Positions 5,259-33,874 of a stretch of DNA of 44,033 bases are shown in pieces. Both the position numbers and the translations under genes were made by a program. The stretch lies in the UHGV virus genome UHGV-0039449; one strand, 5' to 3'. The notes under the pieces are model-generated. The model was not told the DNA's origin. It saw only the letters and a list, made by a program, of their open reading frames with translations, and ran no database searches. The stretch is from a virus. The first letter of the stretch is position 1; each line of letters opens with the position of its first letter.

Positions 5259-5340
5259 AACTTGTTACCTCGGTCTGTTACCGTTGAGGTAATAATTATG
5301 CGTATCTGGTTTGATGTCAATAGATATGAGTTAAAAAAAA

Positions 5341-5412: not shown

Positions 5413-5997
5413 TTATTGTTTGTTTTTTTCGTTCTGGTTGATGACAAATTCAATGTAACTTTCGATCTTTGCTTTCTCGGTTTCGGGTAACAATGCGTAG
5501 CGCGAGCGGTCATAGTTGATAGTCGCAGGGTCGTGCGGGTGAATCAGTAATTCATAGCCATGACGCCCGAATGCGGATGCAACATTCTCCAGGGTGGAAA
5601 TGGAAACGCTGACCTCATTGTTTAACAGGCGGCTGATTGTCACCTGGGCGACGCCGGATGCGCGGTGAAGTTTTCCCTGCGTTGAAAGGTCGCGGCTTTC
5701 GCTCATCCAGCGTTCCAGGTTGTGAGCCGCCAGCTGACCAATGTCGCTTGGGCCGACAGGCTGAAAACCTTCCTGAGAAAGCGAGCGATCGATATCAAGC
5801 CAGTTACGGGGTTTATTGGCGGCAGCTTCAATTTTTCGTGCAACCTGGTCGCCGATAACCTTCTTGCCAAGAGCCCAGCGGTTTACCAGATTTGCCTGAG
5901 TTCCAAGTTTTTCTGCCATCCGCGTCTGAACACCATTGAATTCACGGTCGATCAAGTCGTTGAGATTTTGCCTGCGGACGTCCTGGATACTTTTCAT
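5413..5997 (-). CDS. Putative prophage repressor with tandem XRE-type HTH domains
   Basis: 194 aa with two HTH-like segments (MAEKLGTQANLVNRWALGKK... and VAQVTISRLLNNEVSVSISTLENVASAF). Divergent from the Cro-like gene, with three palindromic sites between them. No S24 peptidase motif seen. Confidence 0.6.
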   Translation of the reverse strand: MKSIQDVRRQNLNDLIDREFNGVQTRMAEKLGTQANLVNRWALGKKVIGDQVARKIEAAANKPRNWLDIDRSLSQEGFQPVGPSDIGQLAAHNLERWMSESRDLSTQGKLHRASGVAQVTISRLLNNEVSVSISTLENVASAFGRHGYELLIHPHDPATINYDRSRYALLPETEKAKIESYIEFVINQNEKNKQ

Positions 5998-20678: not shown

Positions 20679-23149
20679 TGGCTATCAGTTGGATCCAGCC
20701 CAGCTTTGCTGGTGGTGAGATTGGACCGTCGTTGTACGGACGTATCGACATGGCGAAGTACCAGGTGGCATTGCGCAAGTGCGATAACTTTATCGTGCGG
20801 CAGTATGGCGGCGTTGAGAATCGACCTGGTACGCGTTTTGTCGGTGCCGCCAAATACCCAAATCGGAAATGCCGCCTGATCCCGTTCCAGTTCTCGACGG
20901 TTCAGACTTATGCTCTGGAGTTCGGACACCAGTACATGCGCGTTATCAAAGATGGTGCGTTGGTGCTGAACAGCAGCAATGTTATTTATGAAATTGCCAC
21001 GCCATATACTGAAGCCGATCTGTTCCGAATTAAATTCACGCAAAGCGCCGACGTGCTTACGCTGGTTCACCCGGCATACCCGCCGAAAGAGTTGCGCCGA
21101 TATGCTCATGACAACTGGCAACTGGTTGATGTGGTAACGAAGAACGGGCCATTTGAAGATATCAATATTGACGAGTCAGTGACGGTTTATGCCAGCGCCA
21201 GCACCGGGACAATTACGTTAACGGCAAGCGCCTCTATTTTTGGCGCGGAGCAGGTAGGCAAATTGTTCTATCTGGAACAGCCTGCAGTGGATTCAGTACC
21301 GGTATGGGAAACCAGTAAGAGTACGTCGATTGGCGATATTCGCCGTGCAGATAGTAACTACTATCGCGCCGTTACAGCAGGCAAAACAGGTACTTTGCGC
21401 CCTTCGCATACAGAAGGCACATCATGGGATGGCTGGGGCGGATCCGGTGATGATGATACTGGCATTGAGTGGGAGTATCTGCACAGTGGTTTTGGCATTG
21501 CCCGTATCACTGCTGCAAATGGCACTACTGCAACTGCTGAGGTGATTTCCTATATCCCTTCGCAGGTCGTTGGCGAGGATAATGCCAGCTATAAATGGGC
21601 TAAATATGCCTGGAACAGTGTTAATGGTTATCCTGGCACTGTTGTTTATTATCAACAACGTCTTTACTTCGCCGCATCGACTGCGTTCCCTCAGACTATC
21701 TGGGCCAGCCGTACCGGGGATTATAAGGATTTTGGCAAAAGCAATCCTACGCAGGATGACGACAGAATTATCTACACCTATGCCGGGCGTCAGGTTAATG
21801 AGATCCGCCACCTGATTGATGTCGGTTCTCTGGTGGCACTGACTTCCGGAGGTGAGTACGTCATCACCGGCGATCAGAACAAAGTGTTAACCCCATCATC
21901 ATTTGCATTCAGCTCTCAGGGATCAAATGGCTCGAGCAATGTCCCACCAATTGCCGTGGCGAATATTGCTCTGTTCGTCCAGGAGAAAGGCAGTGTTGTC
22001 CGTGATCTGGCCTACTCATTCGATGTTGACGGCTATCAGGGGAACGACCTGACCATCCTTGCCAATCATCTTTTTCAGAAGCACAGCATTGTTGACTGGT
22101 GCTTCTCTATTGTCCCTTACTCCAGCGCCTTCTGCATTCGTGATGACGGTAAATTACTGGTGATGACCTATTTGCGTGATCAGCAGGTTTTTGCATGGGC
22201 ACCACAATCCAGTACCGGAAAATATGAAAGCACATGCAGTATCAGCGAAGGCAATGAAGATGCGGTGTATTTCGTCGTTAACCGAACCGTTAACGGGCAA
22301 AAAGTGAGATACATCGAGCGGCTGTCCAGCCGTTTATTTACCAGCGATGAAGATGCTTTCTTTGTTGATTCTGGCCTTAGCTATGATGGAAGAAATACGT
22401 CTGACAGAACGATGACCATCAGTGGTGGTTCTGGTGAATGGGATTACCGTGCGGAATATACAATCAGTGTTTCTGGTGGTGCGTACTTCACCAGTAGTGA
22501 TGTCTGCGCGCAACTACAGTTCCCTTATACCGGAACTGATCCTGATACTGGCGATGAAGTGTCAAAAGAATTACGTTGCGACATTATTTCTGTAACCAGC
22601 AATACCGCTGTAGTGGTTCGTGCTAACAGGAACGTCCCGCCATCCCTCAGGAATGTGGCCACCACGAACTGGCAGATGGCGCGCCGGACATTTGGAGGCC
22701 TGTCTCATCTTGAAGGCCAGACCGTAAACATTCTCTCTGATGCGAACGTGGAACCACAGAAAGTAGTTTCCGGAGGTGCCGTCACGCTGGAATCTCCGGG
22801 GGCTGTAGTGCACATCGGCCTGCCAATAACTGCTGAATTCGAAACACTGGATATCAACATTAACGGACAGGAAACGCTGCTGGACAAAAAACAGGTGATC
22901 CCATCCGTTACTCTGGTTGTGAATGCCAGTCGCGGCATCTGGGCGACTACGCCTGGCGGTAAATGGTACGAATATCCACAGCGTGAATTCGAGTTCTACG
23001 ATGATCCTGTTGATGATGCTACCGGAAAAGTAGAAGTGAAACTGGACAGTAACTGGGGCAAAAACGGACGTGTAAAAATCCGTCAGCTTGACCCGTTGCC
23101 GCTGTCTGTTCTTGCCGTTATTCCTCGCCTTACTGTTGGGGGGTTCTGA
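20678..23149 (+). CDS. Tail tubular protein B-like (nozzle)
   Basis: 823 aa, overlap-coupled to the upstream gene; call is from size and synteny. Confidence 0.5.
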   Translation: MAISWIQPSFAGGEIGPSLYGRIDMAKYQVALRKCDNFIVRQYGGVENRPGTRFVGAAKYPNRKCRLIPFQFSTVQTYALEFGHQYMRVIKDGALVLNSSNVIYEIATPYTEADLFRIKFTQSADVLTLVHPAYPPKELRRYAHDNWQLVDVVTKNGPFEDINIDESVTVYASASTGTITLTASASIFGAEQVGKLFYLEQPAVDSVPVWETSKSTSIGDIRRADSNYYRAVTAGKTGTLRPSHTEGTSWDGWGGSGDDDTGIEWEYLHSGFGIARITAANGTTATAEVISYIPSQVVGEDNASYKWAKYAWNSVNGYPGTVVYYQQRLYFAASTAFPQTIWASRTGDYKDFGKSNPTQDDDRIIYTYAGRQVNEIRHLIDVGSLVALTSGGEYVITGDQNKVLTPSSFAFSSQGSNGSSNVPPIAVANIALFVQEKGSVVRDLAYSFDVDGYQGNDLTILANHLFQKHSIVDWCFSIVPYSSAFCIRDDGKLLVMTYLRDQQVFAWAPQSSTGKYESTCSISEGNEDAVYFVVNRTVNGQKVRYIERLSSRLFTSDEDAFFVDSGLSYDGRNTSDRTMTISGGSGEWDYRAEYTISVSGGAYFTSSDVCAQLQFPYTGTDPDTGDEVSKELRCDIISVTSNTAVVVRANRNVPPSLRNVATTNWQMARRTFGGLSHLEGQTVNILSDANVEPQKVVSGGAVTLESPGAVVHIGLPITAEFETLDININGQETLLDKKQVIPSVTLVVNASRGIWATTPGGKWYEYPQREFEFYDDPVDDATGKVEVKLDSNWGKNGRVKIRQLDPLPLSVLAVIPRLTVGGF

Positions 23150-23613
23150 TGATCGATGTTCAAATTATTCCCGCAACCGAAGAGCATCTTCAGATGATTT
23201 TGCCGGATGTTCGTCAGGCTGATATTGACGAACTGTATGCGGTATCGCTGATGACTACCGAAGATGCGCTGCGTGTTGGTCTGCGTACTGCGACTATGGC
23301 CTGGTCAGGATTTGCGAACGGAGAACTGGTAACCATGTTTGGCGTATCTCCGGCGTCAATGATCGGTGGCAATGGTACGCCCTGGCTGGTCGGAACCAGC
23401 CGTATCGAAAAATATCAGAAGACATTTCTTCGCCACTGCCGCCCTGTATTGCAGCAGATGCTGGCAGTTTATCCGCGCCTGGAAAACTACGTCGACGAGC
23501 GAAACCACGTTGCCAAAGCATGGCTGCACTGGCTTGGATTCAGGCTTGAAGAAGCCGCGCCTTATGGTGCTCTTGGTCTTAATTTCCACAGATTTCACAT
23601 GGAGAGAAAATAA
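23149..23613 (+). CDS. Hypothetical virion-associated protein
   Basis: 154 aa, overlap-coupled on both sides. Confidence 0.45.
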   Translation: MIDVQIIPATEEHLQMILPDVRQADIDELYAVSLMTTEDALRVGLRTATMAWSGFANGELVTMFGVSPASMIGGNGTPWLVGTSRIEKYQKTFLRHCRPVLQQMLAVYPRLENYVDERNHVAKAWLHWLGFRLEEAAPYGALGLNFHRFHMERK

Positions 23614-28482: not shown

Positions 28483-30957
28483 ATGAGACAGGAATGTATA
28501 CAAGCGGTCCAGCAGGCGGCGCAGCGCACGTTAACGGCGCGAGAAATACAGAACATTGAAGACCGCATTTATCGAAATATGCGCTCTATTGCTCGTGATG
28601 ACCCGATGTCGTGGAGACAACTTTCCGAATCAGAGCGGCTATATCGTGCAGCACAATTGGCATCTGAAGAATTACAGCGAGAAGCGGCATTAAAGAAACG
28701 TCGTGTGGCCCTCACTATAGCCGCACGTCAGAGATTGGATAAATTTATCAATAGCTATCAAGGGGCTGATGGGAAACTTGGCGCTCTTAACCGTACTATT
28801 GCTTTTAATGCAGACGGTAAATCGAATTTCCTCTCTGTTGAATCCAGAACAAAAGCCACCCGTGATTATGCATTGAGTCAATTGCAGGAGGCATTCGAAG
28901 CAGTTGATCCTCGCTTTTTTGGTCTGTTTGAAGATGAAGCTGGCGTACGTGACCTGGTATATGAAATGCGGGGGCAAAATACTGGCAATGCTAAAGCAAG
29001 AAAAGGTGCTAAGGCGTGGAGAGAAGTTACAGAGCTGCTGCGCCGCCGGTTTAATGATGCTGGTGGGGACATTGGCTATCTCGAAAACTGGGGGATCCCT
29101 CAACATCATTCTATGGAAAAGGTTGGGGCGGTATCAAAAGATAAATGGGTTAGCGATGTTATAGGTAAGCTGGATCGCAAATATTATACCCGAGCCGATG
29201 GACAACTGATGAACGATGCCGAGTTGTCTGCATTTCTTGGAGAGGCTTATAACACGATCGCTACTGGTGGGTTGAATAAGCTTACTGATACCGGAATGCG
29301 AATTTCCGGCGCACGTGCTAACCGTGGTAATGCATCACGACAGATACATTTCAAAGATGCAGATTCCTATCTTCAATATCAGCAACTTTATGGCGATCGC
29401 TCTCTATGGGAAATCATGGTCGGTCACCTGGAAGGTATCAGTAAAGATATTGCACTGGTGGAAACATATGGCCCAAACCCCGATCATGTTTTCCGCTCTC
29501 TTCTTGATCAGGTGAAGGCAGAAACGGCAACAGCTAACCCGAGTAAAACCGGTAAAGTCGAGCGGCTGGCGAACAACACAGAGAATCTGTACAACTTTAT
29601 TTCCGGAAAGACACAGCCTGTAGCGAATCCGCACATCGCGCGATGGTCTGACAATATCCGCAACTGGCTGGTTGCCAGCAGACTCGGATCCGCGTTGCTG
29701 TCATCGTTCTCTGATCTTGGAACCATGTATCTGTCTGCGAAGGTTACCAACCTTCCAATGAACCAGTTATTCCGCAACCAGCTTGAAGCTATGGACCCAA
29801 CGAACCGTACAGAACTTGCGCGGGCGCGCCGCGCTGGTCTGGCGATGGAATCTCTACTTGGCAGCGTTAACCGCTGGGCGATGGATAATATGGGGCCGTC
29901 TGTGTCTCGTTGGGCTGCAACGGCGGTAATGCGTGCCAGTGGGCTTACAGCATGGTCAGATGCGCACAAGCGCGCCTATGGCGTAACCATGATGGGAAGC
30001 TTGGGAGAAGTAGTGTCACGGACACCAGACCTTCGTAGCCTCGATGATTCTGATTTTCGTATCCTGAAAAGCAAAGGGATTACTGACACAGACTGGAGCG
30101 TATGGAAGCTGGCGCAACAGGAGGACTGGGGGAACGGCAATAATACGATGCTGACACCGGAAAGCATTATGCGTATCCCTGATTCAGCAGTTAAACATCT
30201 TGGTGAGCCTGAACGCGTGAAATTTGAGGCAATGCGTAAACTGCTCGGTGCCGTAACTGAAGAAGTTGATATGGCTGTTATTACACCGGGAGCACGTGAG
30301 CAACTGATAACCGGTTCTGGTATTCAGCGTGGAACATGGAAAGGTGAATTAACGAGAAGTGTTTTCCTGTTTAAATCGTTCCCTATCTCGGTGGTTATGC
30401 GTCACTGGTCACGCGCTATGGGTATGCCGTCTGCTGGTGGGCGTGCGGCATATATTGCGACGTTTATTGCCAGTACGACCATTCTTGGCGCTTTGTCGCA
30501 GCAACTTAACGACCTTGCGTCTGGTCGTAATCCTCGCGAGATGACAGGAGAAGATGCTGCTAAATTTTGGCTTGGTGCTCTACTGAAAGGTGGTGGTCTT
30601 GGCCTTTACGGTGACTTTTTATTGTCAGATCACACTAGGTACGGAAGCGGCGCGCTGGCGTCGATGCTTGGCCCGGTAGCTGGTCTGGTTGATGACGTAG
30701 TGAAGATTGCTCAGGGCATACCGTTAAATGCTGTGGAAGGGAAGAGTGAGCAGACTGGTGGTGATCTGGTGAAGCTGGGGAAAGGTTTGATGCCTGGTGC
30801 GAATCTCTGGTACTTGAAGGCGGCTCTCGATCACATGATCTTTAACCAGATGCAGGAGTATTTTTCACCAGGCTATTTGCGTAAAATGGAGCAACGTTCG
30901 AAGAAAGAGTTTAACCAGACATACTGGTGGCGACCACAGGATGTCACTCCGCAATAA
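28483..30957 (+). CDS. Internal virion / ejection protein (large)
   Basis: 824 aa; last gene of the late operon before an AT-rich moron segment. Confidence 0.55.
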   Translation: MRQECIQAVQQAAQRTLTAREIQNIEDRIYRNMRSIARDDPMSWRQLSESERLYRAAQLASEELQREAALKKRRVALTIAARQRLDKFINSYQGADGKLGALNRTIAFNADGKSNFLSVESRTKATRDYALSQLQEAFEAVDPRFFGLFEDEAGVRDLVYEMRGQNTGNAKARKGAKAWREVTELLRRRFNDAGGDIGYLENWGIPQHHSMEKVGAVSKDKWVSDVIGKLDRKYYTRADGQLMNDAELSAFLGEAYNTIATGGLNKLTDTGMRISGARANRGNASRQIHFKDADSYLQYQQLYGDRSLWEIMVGHLEGISKDIALVETYGPNPDHVFRSLLDQVKAETATANPSKTGKVERLANNTENLYNFISGKTQPVANPHIARWSDNIRNWLVASRLGSALLSSFSDLGTMYLSAKVTNLPMNQLFRNQLEAMDPTNRTELARARRAGLAMESLLGSVNRWAMDNMGPSVSRWAATAVMRASGLTAWSDAHKRAYGVTMMGSLGEVVSRTPDLRSLDDSDFRILKSKGITDTDWSVWKLAQQEDWGNGNNTMLTPESIMRIPDSAVKHLGEPERVKFEAMRKLLGAVTEEVDMAVITPGAREQLITGSGIQRGTWKGELTRSVFLFKSFPISVVMRHWSRAMGMPSAGGRAAYIATFIASTTILGALSQQLNDLASGRNPREMTGEDAAKFWLGALLKGGGLGLYGDFLLSDHTRYGSGALASMLGPVAGLVDDVVKIAQGIPLNAVEGKSEQTGGDLVKLGKGLMPGANLWYLKAALDHMIFNQMQEYFSPGYLRKMEQRSKKEFNQTYWWRPQDVTPQ

Positions 30958-30968
30958 AAGGAGATATG

Positions 30969-31091
30969 ATGGTTCAAATAACTTTTATTGTACTAATATG
31001 TGCAGCGTTTTTATGCTATTCATACATTTTGATAAAAATGGGTTTCAATTGGAATCTCTGTTGCGTGCAGCGGCATGGTTCGGCTTTGTAG
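30969..31091 (+). CDS. Small hydrophobic peptide (about 40 aa), tentative
   Basis: Hand-translated MVQITFIVLICAAFLCYSYILIKMGFNWNLCCVQRHGSAL; strong AAGGAG RBS 5 nt upstream; AT-rich. Confidence 0.3.
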   Translation: MVQITFIVLICAAFLCYSYILIKMGFNWNLCCVQRHGSAL

Positions 31092-31176
31092 TATTCGGAA
31101 TTGTATTGTTCGGAAGAATAATAAAATAACTAGTTAATTTGTGGATTGGTGCTGTTTTTCCATGATAGGGGTAATT

Positions 31177-31557
31177 ATGAGAAAAGTATTTTTGATTTTT
31201 GGATTTATGCTTCTCGTTGGATGCCAGTCAGCTGCACAGTTTGAAAGAAATATGCTTACGTGGCGCGGGCAGAGTATAGACGCAATGGTTCAGCAGTGGG
31301 GGTATCCTCAGGGAGAGCTTACATCTCCAGATGGAAACAGAGTGTATGTTTACTCAAGCTCTGGTAGTTATAACGTACCACAAACCACAACGTATAATAC
31401 TACGTCTAATCTAATTGGTAATACTATATATTCAAACACATACGCAACAACTGATGGCGGTTATACACTCCATTTCAGTTGCTCTGTTTACGTTGAGTTT
31501 GGTGCTGATAAGATTATTAAAAATGTTACATGGCGCGGTAATAATTGCGTTGCGTGA
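31177..31557 (+). CDS. Lipoprotein of unknown function (moron)
   Basis: 126 aa; signal peptide plus lipobox MRKVFLIFGFMLLVGC; S/T/N/Y-rich mature part; AT-rich; followed by a terminator. Confidence 0.55.
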   Translation: MRKVFLIFGFMLLVGCQSAAQFERNMLTWRGQSIDAMVQQWGYPQGELTSPDGNRVYVYSSSGSYNVPQTTTYNTTSNLIGNTIYSNTYATTDGGYTLHFSCSVYVEFGADKIIKNVTWRGNNCVA

Positions 31558-31566: not shown

Positions 31567-31590
31567 GGCCGCTTTCGCGGCCTTGTTTTT
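31566..31590 (+). terminator. Rho-independent terminator after the lipoprotein gene
   Basis: AGGCCGC-TTTC-GCGGCCT followed by TGTTTTT. Confidence 0.65.
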
Positions 31591-31750
31591 AACGAATGCC
31601 ACCGCCACCCGGGCGGGAATCCGCAGAACGCCCACCGCAGCGGGAGCCGTCAGCAGCAGTGTCGCTGTCGTGCTGACAACGACCGGCAAAGGCCTGAGTT
31701 GAAGCTACCAGAGACAACAAAACGAACAGTGCAGCAAATGCTTTTTTCAT
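31589..31750 (-). CDS. Small secreted peptide, tentative
   Basis: MKKAFAALFVLLSLVASTQAFA signal-like N-terminus then a Gly/Arg-rich tail with two Cys; weak RBS. Confidence 0.25.
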   Translation of the reverse strand: MKKAFAALFVLLSLVASTQAFAGRCQHDSDTAADGSRCGGRSADSRPGGGGIR

Positions 31751-31822
31751 TGTGAAATTTCCATCTATAAGCCACCTCAATGTGGCGTCAATGAGTGTAG
31801 CACTGACTTTTGTTTCGTCCAC

Positions 31823-31843
31823 AAAAAAGCCCGCGCTGCGGGC
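31823..31843 (-). terminator. Rho-independent terminator after the 210-aa gene
   Basis: Minus strand GCCCGC-AGC-GCGGGC followed by TTTTTT. Confidence 0.65.
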
Positions 31844-31848
31844 TTCTA

Positions 31849-32481
31849 TTAATGCAGTTTATCTTTGCTTATAACCAGTAGTCTGTGGGTATGCACATCT
31901 TTATCACTGCCCCAACAGAAATCAGCCCACTGGCTATAGAAATCATCCCATGATGTCATGAAGCTAAGAGGTCTATCTTCTTCAGAGCCATCTGAAACGT
32001 ATACATTATATCCTGGGGTGTTTATAGCCCAAGAAATCATTCTTTCCCAGAATCTTCTCCCATCGATTGTTTGTTGCTCATCAGATACAACGATCGCATA
32101 TTGCTCTAGGAAGAACTGAAAAAAAATCTGAGGCAAACCATGAACAGCACGGTCATGAATAACATTAGGCGTACGCCATACCATGATCTGCGTACATGTT
32201 CTTTTGGCTTCGACGATATCTTCCCGAAAGATTAACTTAACCGCATACACCGTTTCTGGAGTATCGCTGGTAGTAATCATTCTGTAATGATCGCCATTAC
32301 AAGATTTTACAAGGCGATAACCATAAGGTGTTGTGAATCCCGGAAGAACGAAATCAACCACACCTTTCGCTAAGTAGCTTTCGGTGTGACTAGTGTTCTT
32401 CTCAGACATGTTCAGTTTTCTATCGAAATCTGCTTCTGGGATAATGTATGGCATCGCTTTTCTTGTTGTATTTGTTCTCAT
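31849..32481 (-). CDS. Hypothetical protein (210 aa) of unknown function
   Basis: GGGAGG RBS 5 nt upstream; perfect TTACC-N5-GGTAA site about 60 nt upstream; own terminator; no recognisable domain. Confidence 0.5.
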   Translation of the reverse strand: MRTNTTRKAMPYIIPEADFDRKLNMSEKNTSHTESYLAKGVVDFVLPGFTTPYGYRLVKSCNGDHYRMITTSDTPETVYAVKLIFREDIVEAKRTCTQIMVWRTPNVIHDRAVHGLPQIFFQFFLEQYAIVVSDEQQTIDGRRFWERMISWAINTPGYNVYVSDGSEEDRPLSFMTSWDDFYSQWADFCWGSDKDVHTHRLLVISKDKLH

Positions 32482-32539
32482 TTCGTCCTCCCATGTTTGG
32501 CTACAGGACGCGTTTTGAAGGGAAGATTAAAAATGCTTT

Positions 32540-32554
32540 CTTACCCTTGAGGTA
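32540..32554. promoter_or_regulatory. Palindromic site TTACC-CTTGA-GGTAA upstream of the 210-aa gene
   Basis: Perfect site about 60 nt upstream of the minus-strand start at 32481. Confidence 0.5.
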
Positions 32555-32627
32555 ATAGTACGCTATTCACCCCCAGTCTGCAATCTGTACAGAATTATTT
32601 AAAGGCACATCCCTGTGCCGCCGCCCG

Positions 32628-33284
32628 TCAGAAGAACCCTGCCTTGTCGTTGATGTACTCCGCGTGCGTCTGGATATCACGCAGGCATTTGCTCACACCA
32701 ACGATGTAGCAGAACATGGTGGTCAGCTCCGCCGCCGCGCCCGATACGTCGTGCCCGTCGTCCTGTAACTGGTTCAGCAGATTCATCAGCAGTGAGTTCT
32801 CCGTCAGGCCGAGAACACCAGACGGCGAGTGAATCAGGCTGCGGTAGCCGGGCTTCAGTGGGGCACTGTATTCTTTTTTGTCTTCCAGCTTGATCGCCTC
32901 CATAATGGCGGGCATGAAGCCTGACAAGACCTTCTCCACTTTTGTTTCTTGTTGTCTTAAACGTTTCTCGCATTCAATGAAGTAGCGTCGCACCTGGCGA
33001 CCTTTTTCGTTACGCTCGACCATCGCCAGCTCTTTGGCTGTATCAAGGGTGAGGTGGTACTCTTTGCGGTTGTGGCCGCCTCTACCAGATGTTTGCTTTC
33101 CCAAATTGGAAAGCAAAATATAGTCTTGATTTTCAATGAATTCGTATTCTGATATGCGATTTGTAATCCATGCTGCAAACACCTTTTTAACACCTAAAAA
33201 AGCGTGCAGATCGCGGGCATTACAAAGTAGGGCTGTTTCGTTAGATATAGTGCCGTTGAATACGGGGATGAGTTGAGCGTTCAT
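32628..33284 (-). CDS. Phage antirepressor (AntA-type N-terminal domain)
   Basis: 218 aa; [32 protein letters not shown]...[33 protein letters not shown] matches the AntA/AntB N-domain; GGAG RBS. Confidence 0.7.
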
Positions 33285-33442
33285 GATGGCGTCTCCACTT
33301 AGCGAATTACATCACCACCGCTGAGACCAATCAGATGGTGGTGAACTGAACGGAGTTGGTCTTACCGGCCTAAGTGGTACCGGCGTCCTTTCGGACCCCC
33401 ATTCAGCCCACCATAATTCTGGCATGACTGTGCTATACGCAT

Positions 33443-33465
33443 AAAAAAACCACGTCTGGCGTGGT
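33443..33465 (-). terminator. Terminator-like hairpin upstream of ant
   Basis: Minus strand ACCACGCC-AGA-CGTGGT region followed by TTTTTTTAT. Confidence 0.45.
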
Positions 33466-33555
33466 ATGCGCCACTTAGTAATCCGGGAGACCAATCCCGG
33501 CACTGGATTTTGCCAGTGCCCGATTACTATGGCACAAGAGGAGTGCGATGTAAAT

Positions 33556-33570
33556 TTACCGCAAAGGTAA
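33556..33570. promoter_or_regulatory. Palindromic site TTACC-GCAAA-GGTAA between the small Ant paralogue and ant
   Basis: Perfect site in the long leader region upstream of ant. Confidence 0.45.
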
Positions 33571-33601
33571 ATATAAGCACTCCATTTGGTAATTTCAAAC
33601 C

Positions 33602-33874
33602 TTATCTGGTTTGTTTTCGTAATTGTTCGGCACAATAGTCGAGATGTGTTTGCAGATCCTGCATAGACATCTGTGAGCTGGTGACGTAGTTAATCAGTGC
33701 AGTCAGTTCGGCAAGTGGGCCATCGACATTAAATCCATCCTTATCGAGATCCCGGAGTAATTTCATCAAGTGCGATCCCTCCACCAGTGACCTGACGCCT
33801 CCCGGCGTGTGAATCCTTTCGGTAAATCCCTCTTCCAGTGGATAGTGATACTGCTGCATCTTAATCTTCTCCAT
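33602..33874 (-). CDS. Small protein paralogous to the antirepressor C-terminal domain; candidate SOS-inducible antirepressor
   Basis: Aligns by eye to Ant residues about 150-210 (TPGGVRSLVEGSHLMKLLRDLDKDGFNVDGPLAELTALINYV vs [42 protein letters not shown]). Likely start is the second ATG at 33859; LexA-like box 33880-33899 just upstream. Confidence 0.5.
   Translation of the reverse strand: MEKIKMQQYHYPLEEGFTERIHTPGGVRSLVEGSHLMKLLRDLDKDGFNVDGPLAELTALINYVTSSQMSMQDLQTHLDYCAEQLRKQTR

Follow-up and report, generated by a model that had tools for sequence, protein, structure and literature searches.

The virus genome UHGV-0039449 (44,033 nt, analysed whole and hereafter called the window) carries at positions 31849-32481, on the minus strand, a gene for a 210-amino acid (aa) protein of the family phrog_1349. 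We found that this gene occupies a slot that holds unrelated genes in other Escherichia coli strains, next to one copy of a palindrome that recurs throughout the window, and that its product is predicted to adopt a divergent GNAT-like fold. We tentatively favour, at slightly less than an even chance, the interpretation that this cargo gene encodes an immunity-controlled, early-expressed soluble enzyme of GNAT fold, modifying a target of the host or of a rival for host takeover or counter-defence. The gene probably acts in lytic growth and not in the dormant prophage. The region matched Uetakevirus phages and was 100% identical to E. coli chromosomes, and by its sequence the window is an E. coli prophage of the phiV10/epsilon15 type (Uetakevirus).

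Cargo gene and exchangeable slot

The features of the slot and its two neighbours, in window coordinates, are the following (ORF, open reading frame; UTR, untranslated region).

31589-31750, minus strand: gene for a 53-aa secreted protein (WP_000708858.1), the downstream neighbour, present with every cargo
31821-31845, minus strand: intrinsic terminator of the slot, beginning 3 nt past the cargo stop codon
31849-32481, minus strand: cargo coding sequence, 210 aa, ATG start, phrog_1349, predicted GNAT-like fold
32482-32540, minus strand: cargo-specific 5' UTR, which travels with the ORF and is absent from the other slot cargos
32487-32492, minus strand: Shine-Dalgarno sequence GGGAGG, part of the cargo, with a 5-nt spacer before the ATG
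32541-32555, no strand given: predicted operator TTACC-N5-GGTAA (TTACCCTTGAGGTAA), 59 nt upstream of the cargo ATG
32555-32583, minus strand: putative sigma-70 promoter, with -35 TTGCAG (32578-32583), a 17-nt spacer and -10 TACTAT (32555-32560)
32604-32619, minus strand: weak terminator hairpin GGCACA-N4-TGTGCC with a poor U run, just past the ant stop codon, conserved among slot variants
32628-33284, minus strand: ant, an AntA/AntB-type antirepressor gene, the upstream neighbour

Both flanks of the slot were kept in 468 of 5426 complete E. coli genomes, 93 of which carried the 210-aa cargo. In other E. coli strains, the block formed by the ant stop codon, hairpin, promoter and operator on one side, and the terminator on the other, was identical around other cargos, namely a YafO-like toxin, a DUF4760 protein, a DUF2335 protein with a small ORF, and a pair of 146-aa and 55-aa proteins. 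In phiV10, the slot downstream of ant was without cargo. Because the promoter-operator and the terminator are common to unrelated cargos, the cargo proper comprises only the 5' UTR, the ribosome-binding site (RBS) and the ORF, from 32540 down to 31849, and the promoter-operator and the terminator are the constant 5' and 3' docking ends of the slot. The locus thus shows cassette exchange in which expression signals seem to double as constant recombination ends. In one other strain, an unannotated small ORF (MRNEKLQMRRAQ...; locus L070, 2111-2330, minus strand) was located between the operator and the gene of the YafO-like toxin, and could be a candidate for its cognate antitoxin.

The ORF, the GGGAGG RBS, the perfect TTACC-N5-GGTAA palindrome and the terminator had all been noticed in a preliminary description of the sequence, and we recovered the four of them on the minus strand, at or next to the gene. 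That description had taken them for a self-contained unit located between a lipoprotein gene and ant. We did recover a transcription unit of a single gene that is independent, exchangeable and located in a hot spot, but its signals belong to the slot, and the terminator in particular, thought to be the gene's own, is a constant slot end common to unrelated cargos. The location between virion genes and ant was also confirmed, except that the 53-aa gene additionally separates the cassette from the lipoprotein gene. The latter belongs to a second variable slot (30941-31557, plus strand), back-to-back with the cargo slot and following the gene of an 824-aa virion protein. In the window it contains a 62-aa membrane ORF and the lipoprotein gene (lipobox LVGC, G+C 40.3%), and in other strains (loci L070-L074) unrelated genes, encoding DUF919 and hypothetical proteins.

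The predicted operator abuts the -10 element of the cargo promoter and covers the predicted transcription start. This layout is that of the ant-operon promoter described below, and was conserved throughout the slot variants as well as in phage LLS. The hairpin past the ant stop codon is weak, so that read-through from ant into the cargo would be possible. In either case, whether transcription starts from the cargo promoter or reads through from ant, cargo expression should require that the repressor be lost. At the other end, the slot terminator consists of an 8-bp G+C-rich stem (31827-31834 with 31838-31845) and a 3-nt loop, followed by a T run on the minus strand, with a fold of -17 kcal/mol (z = -3.1 against shuffles). 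A consensus terminator scan did not pick it up; the probable reason is that the stem can be prolonged into the T run.

Judged by its conservation, the 210-aa ORF is a genuine phage accessory gene, far beyond chance, since it had 63 clusters of close homologues (E values to 1e-142; 47-100% identity, with one outlier at 37%) and the profile search retrieved 918 clusters at 50% identity. Its G+C content was 40.8%, against 48.3% for the window. The GGAGG core of the Shine-Dalgarno sequence was kept in the homologues. A motif of the CTCCG/GTCCG type was also kept in nearly all of them, 9-17 nt before the Shine-Dalgarno sequence (32494-32512, minus strand, in the window), and persisted even where the remaining 5' UTR had diverged. 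A hairpin hiding the Shine-Dalgarno sequence was considered and rejected: minimum free energy folds paired this sequence in most homologues, but the controls did not support it, the 5' UTR fold of the window cargo having z = -1.1 and the pairing probabilities of the Shine-Dalgarno sequence in 20 UTRs not exceeding those after dinucleotide shuffling of the upstream sequence.

Predicted phage-wide operator and control of ant

Two further control regions of the window bear on the regulation of the cargo gene, together with the gene of a candidate regulator acting in trans.

5413-5997, minus strand: candidate trans-acting regulator, a 194-aa prophage repressor with a double helix-turn-helix (HTH) and without peptidase domain
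33334-33519, minus strand: C4 antisense RNA (33334-33418) and isrK-like RNA (33443-33519), ahead of ant, from Rfam
33556-33598, minus strand: ant-operon promoter TTGAAA-17-TATATT (10/12), with an operator copy at 33556-33570 abutting the -10 element

The window contained 9 perfect copies of TTACC-N5-GGTAA against 0.02 expected, and 6 copies with one mismatch, giving 15 copies with at most one mismatch against 0.67 expected (5278, 5341, 6053, 6101, 6438, 8384, 8446, 11330, 11348, 14250, 14867, 32541, 33556, 33937 and 36793). They were mostly intergenic and adjoined promoter-like sequences, 11 of the 15 being outside long ORFs, which leave only 6.8% of the window. Copies stood ahead of the replication, terminase, portal, ant, tailspike and lysis units, and those at 5278, 5341, 6053 and 6101 flanked the repressor gene. 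The palindrome thus combined the traits of a Uetakevirus operator, in that its copies were numerous and intergenic, overlapped promoters and stood on both sides of the repressor gene. Moreover, in the RefSeq record of epsilon15, ATTACC-N5-GGTAAT sites identical to these and equivalent in position carry the label repressor-binding. We therefore predict that the palindrome at 32541-32555 is a phage-wide operator of the prophage repressor. As one of the 9 perfect and 6 near-perfect copies in the window, it would not be the private operator of the cargo gene, as it had first been described. Most transcription units of the prophage seem to be under the direct control of the double-HTH repressor, in line with the epsilon15 annotation. 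In the ZX5 study, overexpression of the repressor shut down the transcription of lysis genes, a result that concerns this effect only (PMC9782041).

Ahead of the upstream neighbour ant, the C4 antisense RNA and isrK scored 61 and 68 bits with Rfam models, and the a1/b1 target sites were also present; all these elements lie downstream of the operator-controlled promoter (33598) and before ant. A 107-aa ORF with a TTG start (33312-33635), which overlaps the two RNAs, is probably spurious. In the immI region of P1, c4-icd-ant is followed by kilA-repL under a C1 operator. By sequence, the antisense control of ant would thus be a P1 immI-type module in a podovirus: in both, C4 and isrK-like RNAs precede ant, the ant-operon promoter and the next one each have an immunity operator, and both operator copies belong to many scattered over the genome. 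The window differs from P1 by its podovirus background, by its repressor and operator sequence, and by a downstream unit that is a variable one-gene cargo instead of kilA-repL.

The cargo gene also resembles the morons of lambdoid phages, which have their own promoter and terminator, are inserted between backbone genes and are classically expressed from the repressed prophage. Like them, it is bracketed by a promoter and a terminator, is lower in G+C than the backbone and, in LLS and other phages, is located where morons are typically found. In contrast to morons, its promoter overlaps the putative immunity operator, and promoter and terminator are constants of the slot that were not imported with the gene. 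The operator abutting the -10 element predicts that the cargo is repressed in the lysogen, unlike a classical moron. The cargos that E. coli Uetakevirus prophages swap would thus stay silent in the lysogen, unlike the textbook moron expressed from the prophage.

Protein family and predicted fold

The product (24.6 kDa, isoelectric point 6.0, without transmembrane segment) is predicted from its sequence to be soluble and cytoplasmic. It had no match among Pfam, NCBIfam or PADLOC models; with PADLOC-DB 2.0 (library dated 2023), no family was found for this protein, six alternative slot cargos and two neighbouring window genes. PHROGs assigned it to phrog_1349, whose function label is unknown, as were 110 of 110 diverse relatives sampled. 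Close homologues were restricted to Enterobacterales and related genera and were all labelled hypothetical, and a literature search on WP_001260052 and phrog_1349 yielded no paper. PHROG 1349 is thus a large, widely spread and wholly uncharacterised family of phage proteins. Homology of the 210-aa protein to a structural or housekeeping protein, which the preliminary description had held to be incompatible with its proposal, was looked for and none was found. That description had also recognised no domain, which agreed with the sequence-profile libraries but not with structure prediction, which gave a GNAT-like fold.

An AlphaFold2 model computed from 35 sequences had a mean predicted local distance difference test score (pLDDT) of 78.6 and a predicted template modelling score (pTM) of 0.74. 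In Foldseek searches against the PDB, the matches were weak but exclusively GNATs, and the predicted mixed alpha/beta fold aligned with them over about 110-130 residues at 5-13% identity. The likeness to NatD/Naa40 (PDB 4ua3), Hat1 (1bob) and AAC(2')-Ia (5us1) lies in this predicted fold; TacT, AtaT and KacT were also among the structural matches, no better than other GNATs. Against BFVD, we recovered uncharacterised phage proteins (of the Agrobacterium jumbo phage Atu_ph07, E = 6e-9) and viral proteins annotated as NAT_SF/GNAT. Compared with the GNAT superfamily, the 210-aa protein has additional helices at both ends, a pair at the N-terminus and one at the C-terminus. According to the model, it would represent a divergent GNAT-like fold and a new unannotated family.

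Positions conserved throughout the family were P11, N29, Y79, Q98, W102, R103, G115-L-A/P117, F120-F121, S/T133-D134, Q137-T138, G141, F144-W145, Y161, D164, W190-G191 and I204-S205, and thus included the polar residues N29, Y79, Q98, R103, D134, Q137, T138 and D164. The G-L-[A/P] element is located at the N-terminus of the helix 116-127, the counterpart of GNAT alpha3, and reads G115-L116-P117 in the window protein and G-L-A in most distant members. In the model, G115-L-A/P117 would occupy the place of GNAT motif A and S-D-x-x-Q-T-x-x-G-x-x-F-W the beta5-alpha4 region.

Homologues of the cargo gene stood alone as single units in unrelated temperate phages of several morphotypes. In siphovirus prophages of Serratia and Leclercia, they were located between the tail chaperone and tape measure genes, often beside P22-type Ant and Arc, and in lambdoid prophages between the spanin (Rz) and small terminase genes, as in LLS; others were found in P1-like Citrobacter elements and in prophage-like regions of Xenorhabdus. 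Two virulent jumbo phages, Atu_ph07 and BCSR5, also had relatives, and so did a 174-kb viral contig, where by their ORF translations the adjoining genes were DHFR-like on one side and clamp-like on the other. Tandem paralogues 15 bp apart occurred at two loci (L066 851-2148 and L067 4186-5480; hhalign E value 1e-40 for the second copy). Two members were fused to other domains: a distant metagenomic one (L083 5823-7080) to the modified-DNA-reading domain SRA_ScoMcrA, with a start overlapping an upstream Phd/YefM antitoxin-type gene and two more Phd/YefM-like genes nearby, and one further member to an MqsA zinc ribbon.

In phage LLS and related Enterobacter prophages, the gene was 84% identical and had the same -35, -10, operator and UTR, so that the promoter-operator evidently hitch-hiked into LLS with the gene. 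The orphan operator could make the LLS gene, gene 57, respond to the repressor of a co-resident Uetakevirus; the LLS paper gives gene 57 no function. At the promoters of homologues in other phages (loci L002-L007 and L045-L049, about 80 nt upstream of the gene, and L041/L042/L056, L048 and L081), we observed other perfect palindromes, namely ACAAC-N4-GTTGT against ATAAC-N4-GTTAT, in which both half-sites are changed symmetrically, TAACGG-N5-CCGTTA, and TTGCTCA-N4-TGAGCAA. Each palindrome ahead of the Serratia, Leclercia and other homologues occurred only once within 12-16 kb of DNA, and no P1 C1 operator was found upstream of the P1-like Citrobacter copies. From the variety of these promoter palindromes, each phage may control the gene through a dimeric regulator of its own.

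Function of the cargo gene

In the mechanism that we favour, the slot would supply a weak sigma-70 promoter with operator and a terminator, and the cargo its 5' UTR, strong RBS and ORF. We predict that in lysogens the operator is occupied by the double-HTH repressor, which would keep the cargo gene off; infection, or derepression driven by Ant, would then yield a monocistronic early mRNA of about 0.75 kb, whose product would bind an acyl donor and modify a macromolecule of the host or of a competitor, favouring lytic growth. The conserved gene, its signals, the multi-copy intergenic palindrome, the exchange of cargos and the resemblance at fold level are observations, and from them we infer the binding of the repressor, the timing of expression, catalytic activity, donor, target and benefit. 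A function in the lytic phase is favoured by the predicted repressor control, the soluble cytoplasmic product, the lack of a PADLOC match and the relatives in virulent jumbo phages, as well as by ant, which is located directly upstream and whose promoter shares this arrangement of the operator; the tandem paralogues of L066 were also counted in favour of this role. AcrVA5 and other phage-borne acetyltransferases serve in counter-defence, and a host immune protein could be disabled by acylation. The likeness of the 210-aa protein to them lies in the general description of a small, single-gene, prophage-borne protein of GNAT type. If this interpretation is correct, a large uncharacterised family gains a GNAT-like fold assignment and a predicted time of action, early lytic and immunity-controlled, and the cargo becomes a concrete candidate for screens of counter-defence or host takeover.

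Several points weigh against such an immunity-controlled enzyme. The putative cargo promoter is weak (7/12) and fell below the threshold of the consensus scan, and the binding of the repressor at 32541-32555 is read from annotation and inference. In LLS, the operator (L064 42053-42067) is the only perfect copy and the immunity operators look different; the gene would thus escape operator control there, and tight repression would not be essential to the family. There was no GNAT Pfam match for the 210-aa protein or 110 diverse relatives, and sequence-profile searches against the PDB with both alignments gave nothing useful. The canonical Q/R-x-x-G-x-G/A is not clearly kept, the Q/R position being variable and Pro117 present in the close family. 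Finally, the toxin-like alternative cargo fits defence or abortive infection equally well.

With motif A degenerate, the protein could be non-catalytic, a GNAT-like pseudo-enzyme that binds a host protein and blocks or redirects it stoichiometrically. The lack of a GNAT sequence-profile match and the Pro117 in the pyrophosphate-loop motif agree with this, and many small phage early proteins are stoichiometric inhibitors. Nevertheless, the conserved polar set is kept across members that are about 25% identical and come from unrelated hosts, a pattern more in keeping with a site of catalysis or cofactor binding than with a host-specific interface, and we consider a binding protein unlikely, while ranking it first among the alternatives to an enzyme.

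We regard as rather unlikely a defence or superinfection-exclusion gene expressed from the prophage and shielding the lysogen from other phages. The preliminary description had suggested exclusion, defence or anti-defence, as functions frequent among cassettes close to the tailspike. A gene expressed from the prophage would suit a tailspike-proximal hot spot whose cargos are interchangeable and include a toxin-like one, the low G+C typical of morons, the stand-alone unit in several temperate phage backbones and the LLS operator without cognate repressor, where expression could be constitutive. It is hard to reconcile with a promoter that overlaps the putative repressor operator in the layout of the ant promoter, itself necessarily silent in lysogens, with the absence of a PADLOC match for the 210-aa protein or the alternative cargos, with a soluble cytoplasmic product unlike membrane exclusion proteins, and with the relatives in virulent jumbo phages.

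A toxin-like effector that, in the manner of GNAT toxins, poisons a core process (for instance aminoacyl-tRNA or DNA) after loss of the repressor, leading to host shut-off or abortive infection, appears quite improbable. The SRA_ScoMcrA fusion preceded by its overlapping Phd/YefM gene, the MqsA fusion and the YafO-like toxin in the same slot of other strains point in this direction, as do TacT, AtaT and KacT among the structural matches, with the restriction on these given above; each fusion, however, is a single case among 918 clusters. Compared with type II GNAT toxin-antitoxin modules (TacAT, AtaRT, KacAT), no ORF was found between the operator and the start codon of the cargo. The neighbours of the cargo are ant and the secreted 53-aa gene, and no antitoxin-like partner adjoined either the cargo or, at the temperate-phage loci examined, its homologues, the distant SRA fusion of L083 being the exception. 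In addition, LLS appears to carry the gene without a matching repressor.

It is very doubtful that PHROG 1349 is a new phage class of GNAT fold acylating DNA or tRNA and not proteins, by a chemistry of Mom-like anti-restriction or host shut-off with a different donor or target, although there are hints of it in the SRA_ScoMcrA fusion with its guarding Phd/YefM-type gene and in the tight immunity control predicted for this prophage. Mom of phage Mu (PDB 8bv8) has a GNAT fold and carries out a Gly-tRNA-dependent modification of DNA adenine (PMC13219725). Both genes are phage-encoded, non-essential, tightly controlled, terminal or accessory genes for GNAT-fold proteins, and a distant relative of the 210-aa family carries the DNA base-reading SRA domain, which hints that nucleic acid could be the substrate. 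Membership of two known families was rejected: the Mom family (PF25680) matched Mu Mom at 2.4e-75 but not the 210-aa protein, and hhalign of the family profile against Mom gave a probability of 0.1. For the T4 Mrh family (PF24070), only one distant relative gave a match, at E = 0.08, and hhalign against T4 Mrh and ModA.3 gave a probability of about 0.1.

Elsewhere in the window, the gene at 23149-23613 (plus strand) is by gene order the apparent counterpart of that of epsilon15 gp13, an internal virion protein. The epsilon15 record annotates gp13 with an HHpred match to a GNAT acetyltransferase and the window gene had no Pfam match; the phage may thus carry a second, unrelated GNAT-like protein at this position.
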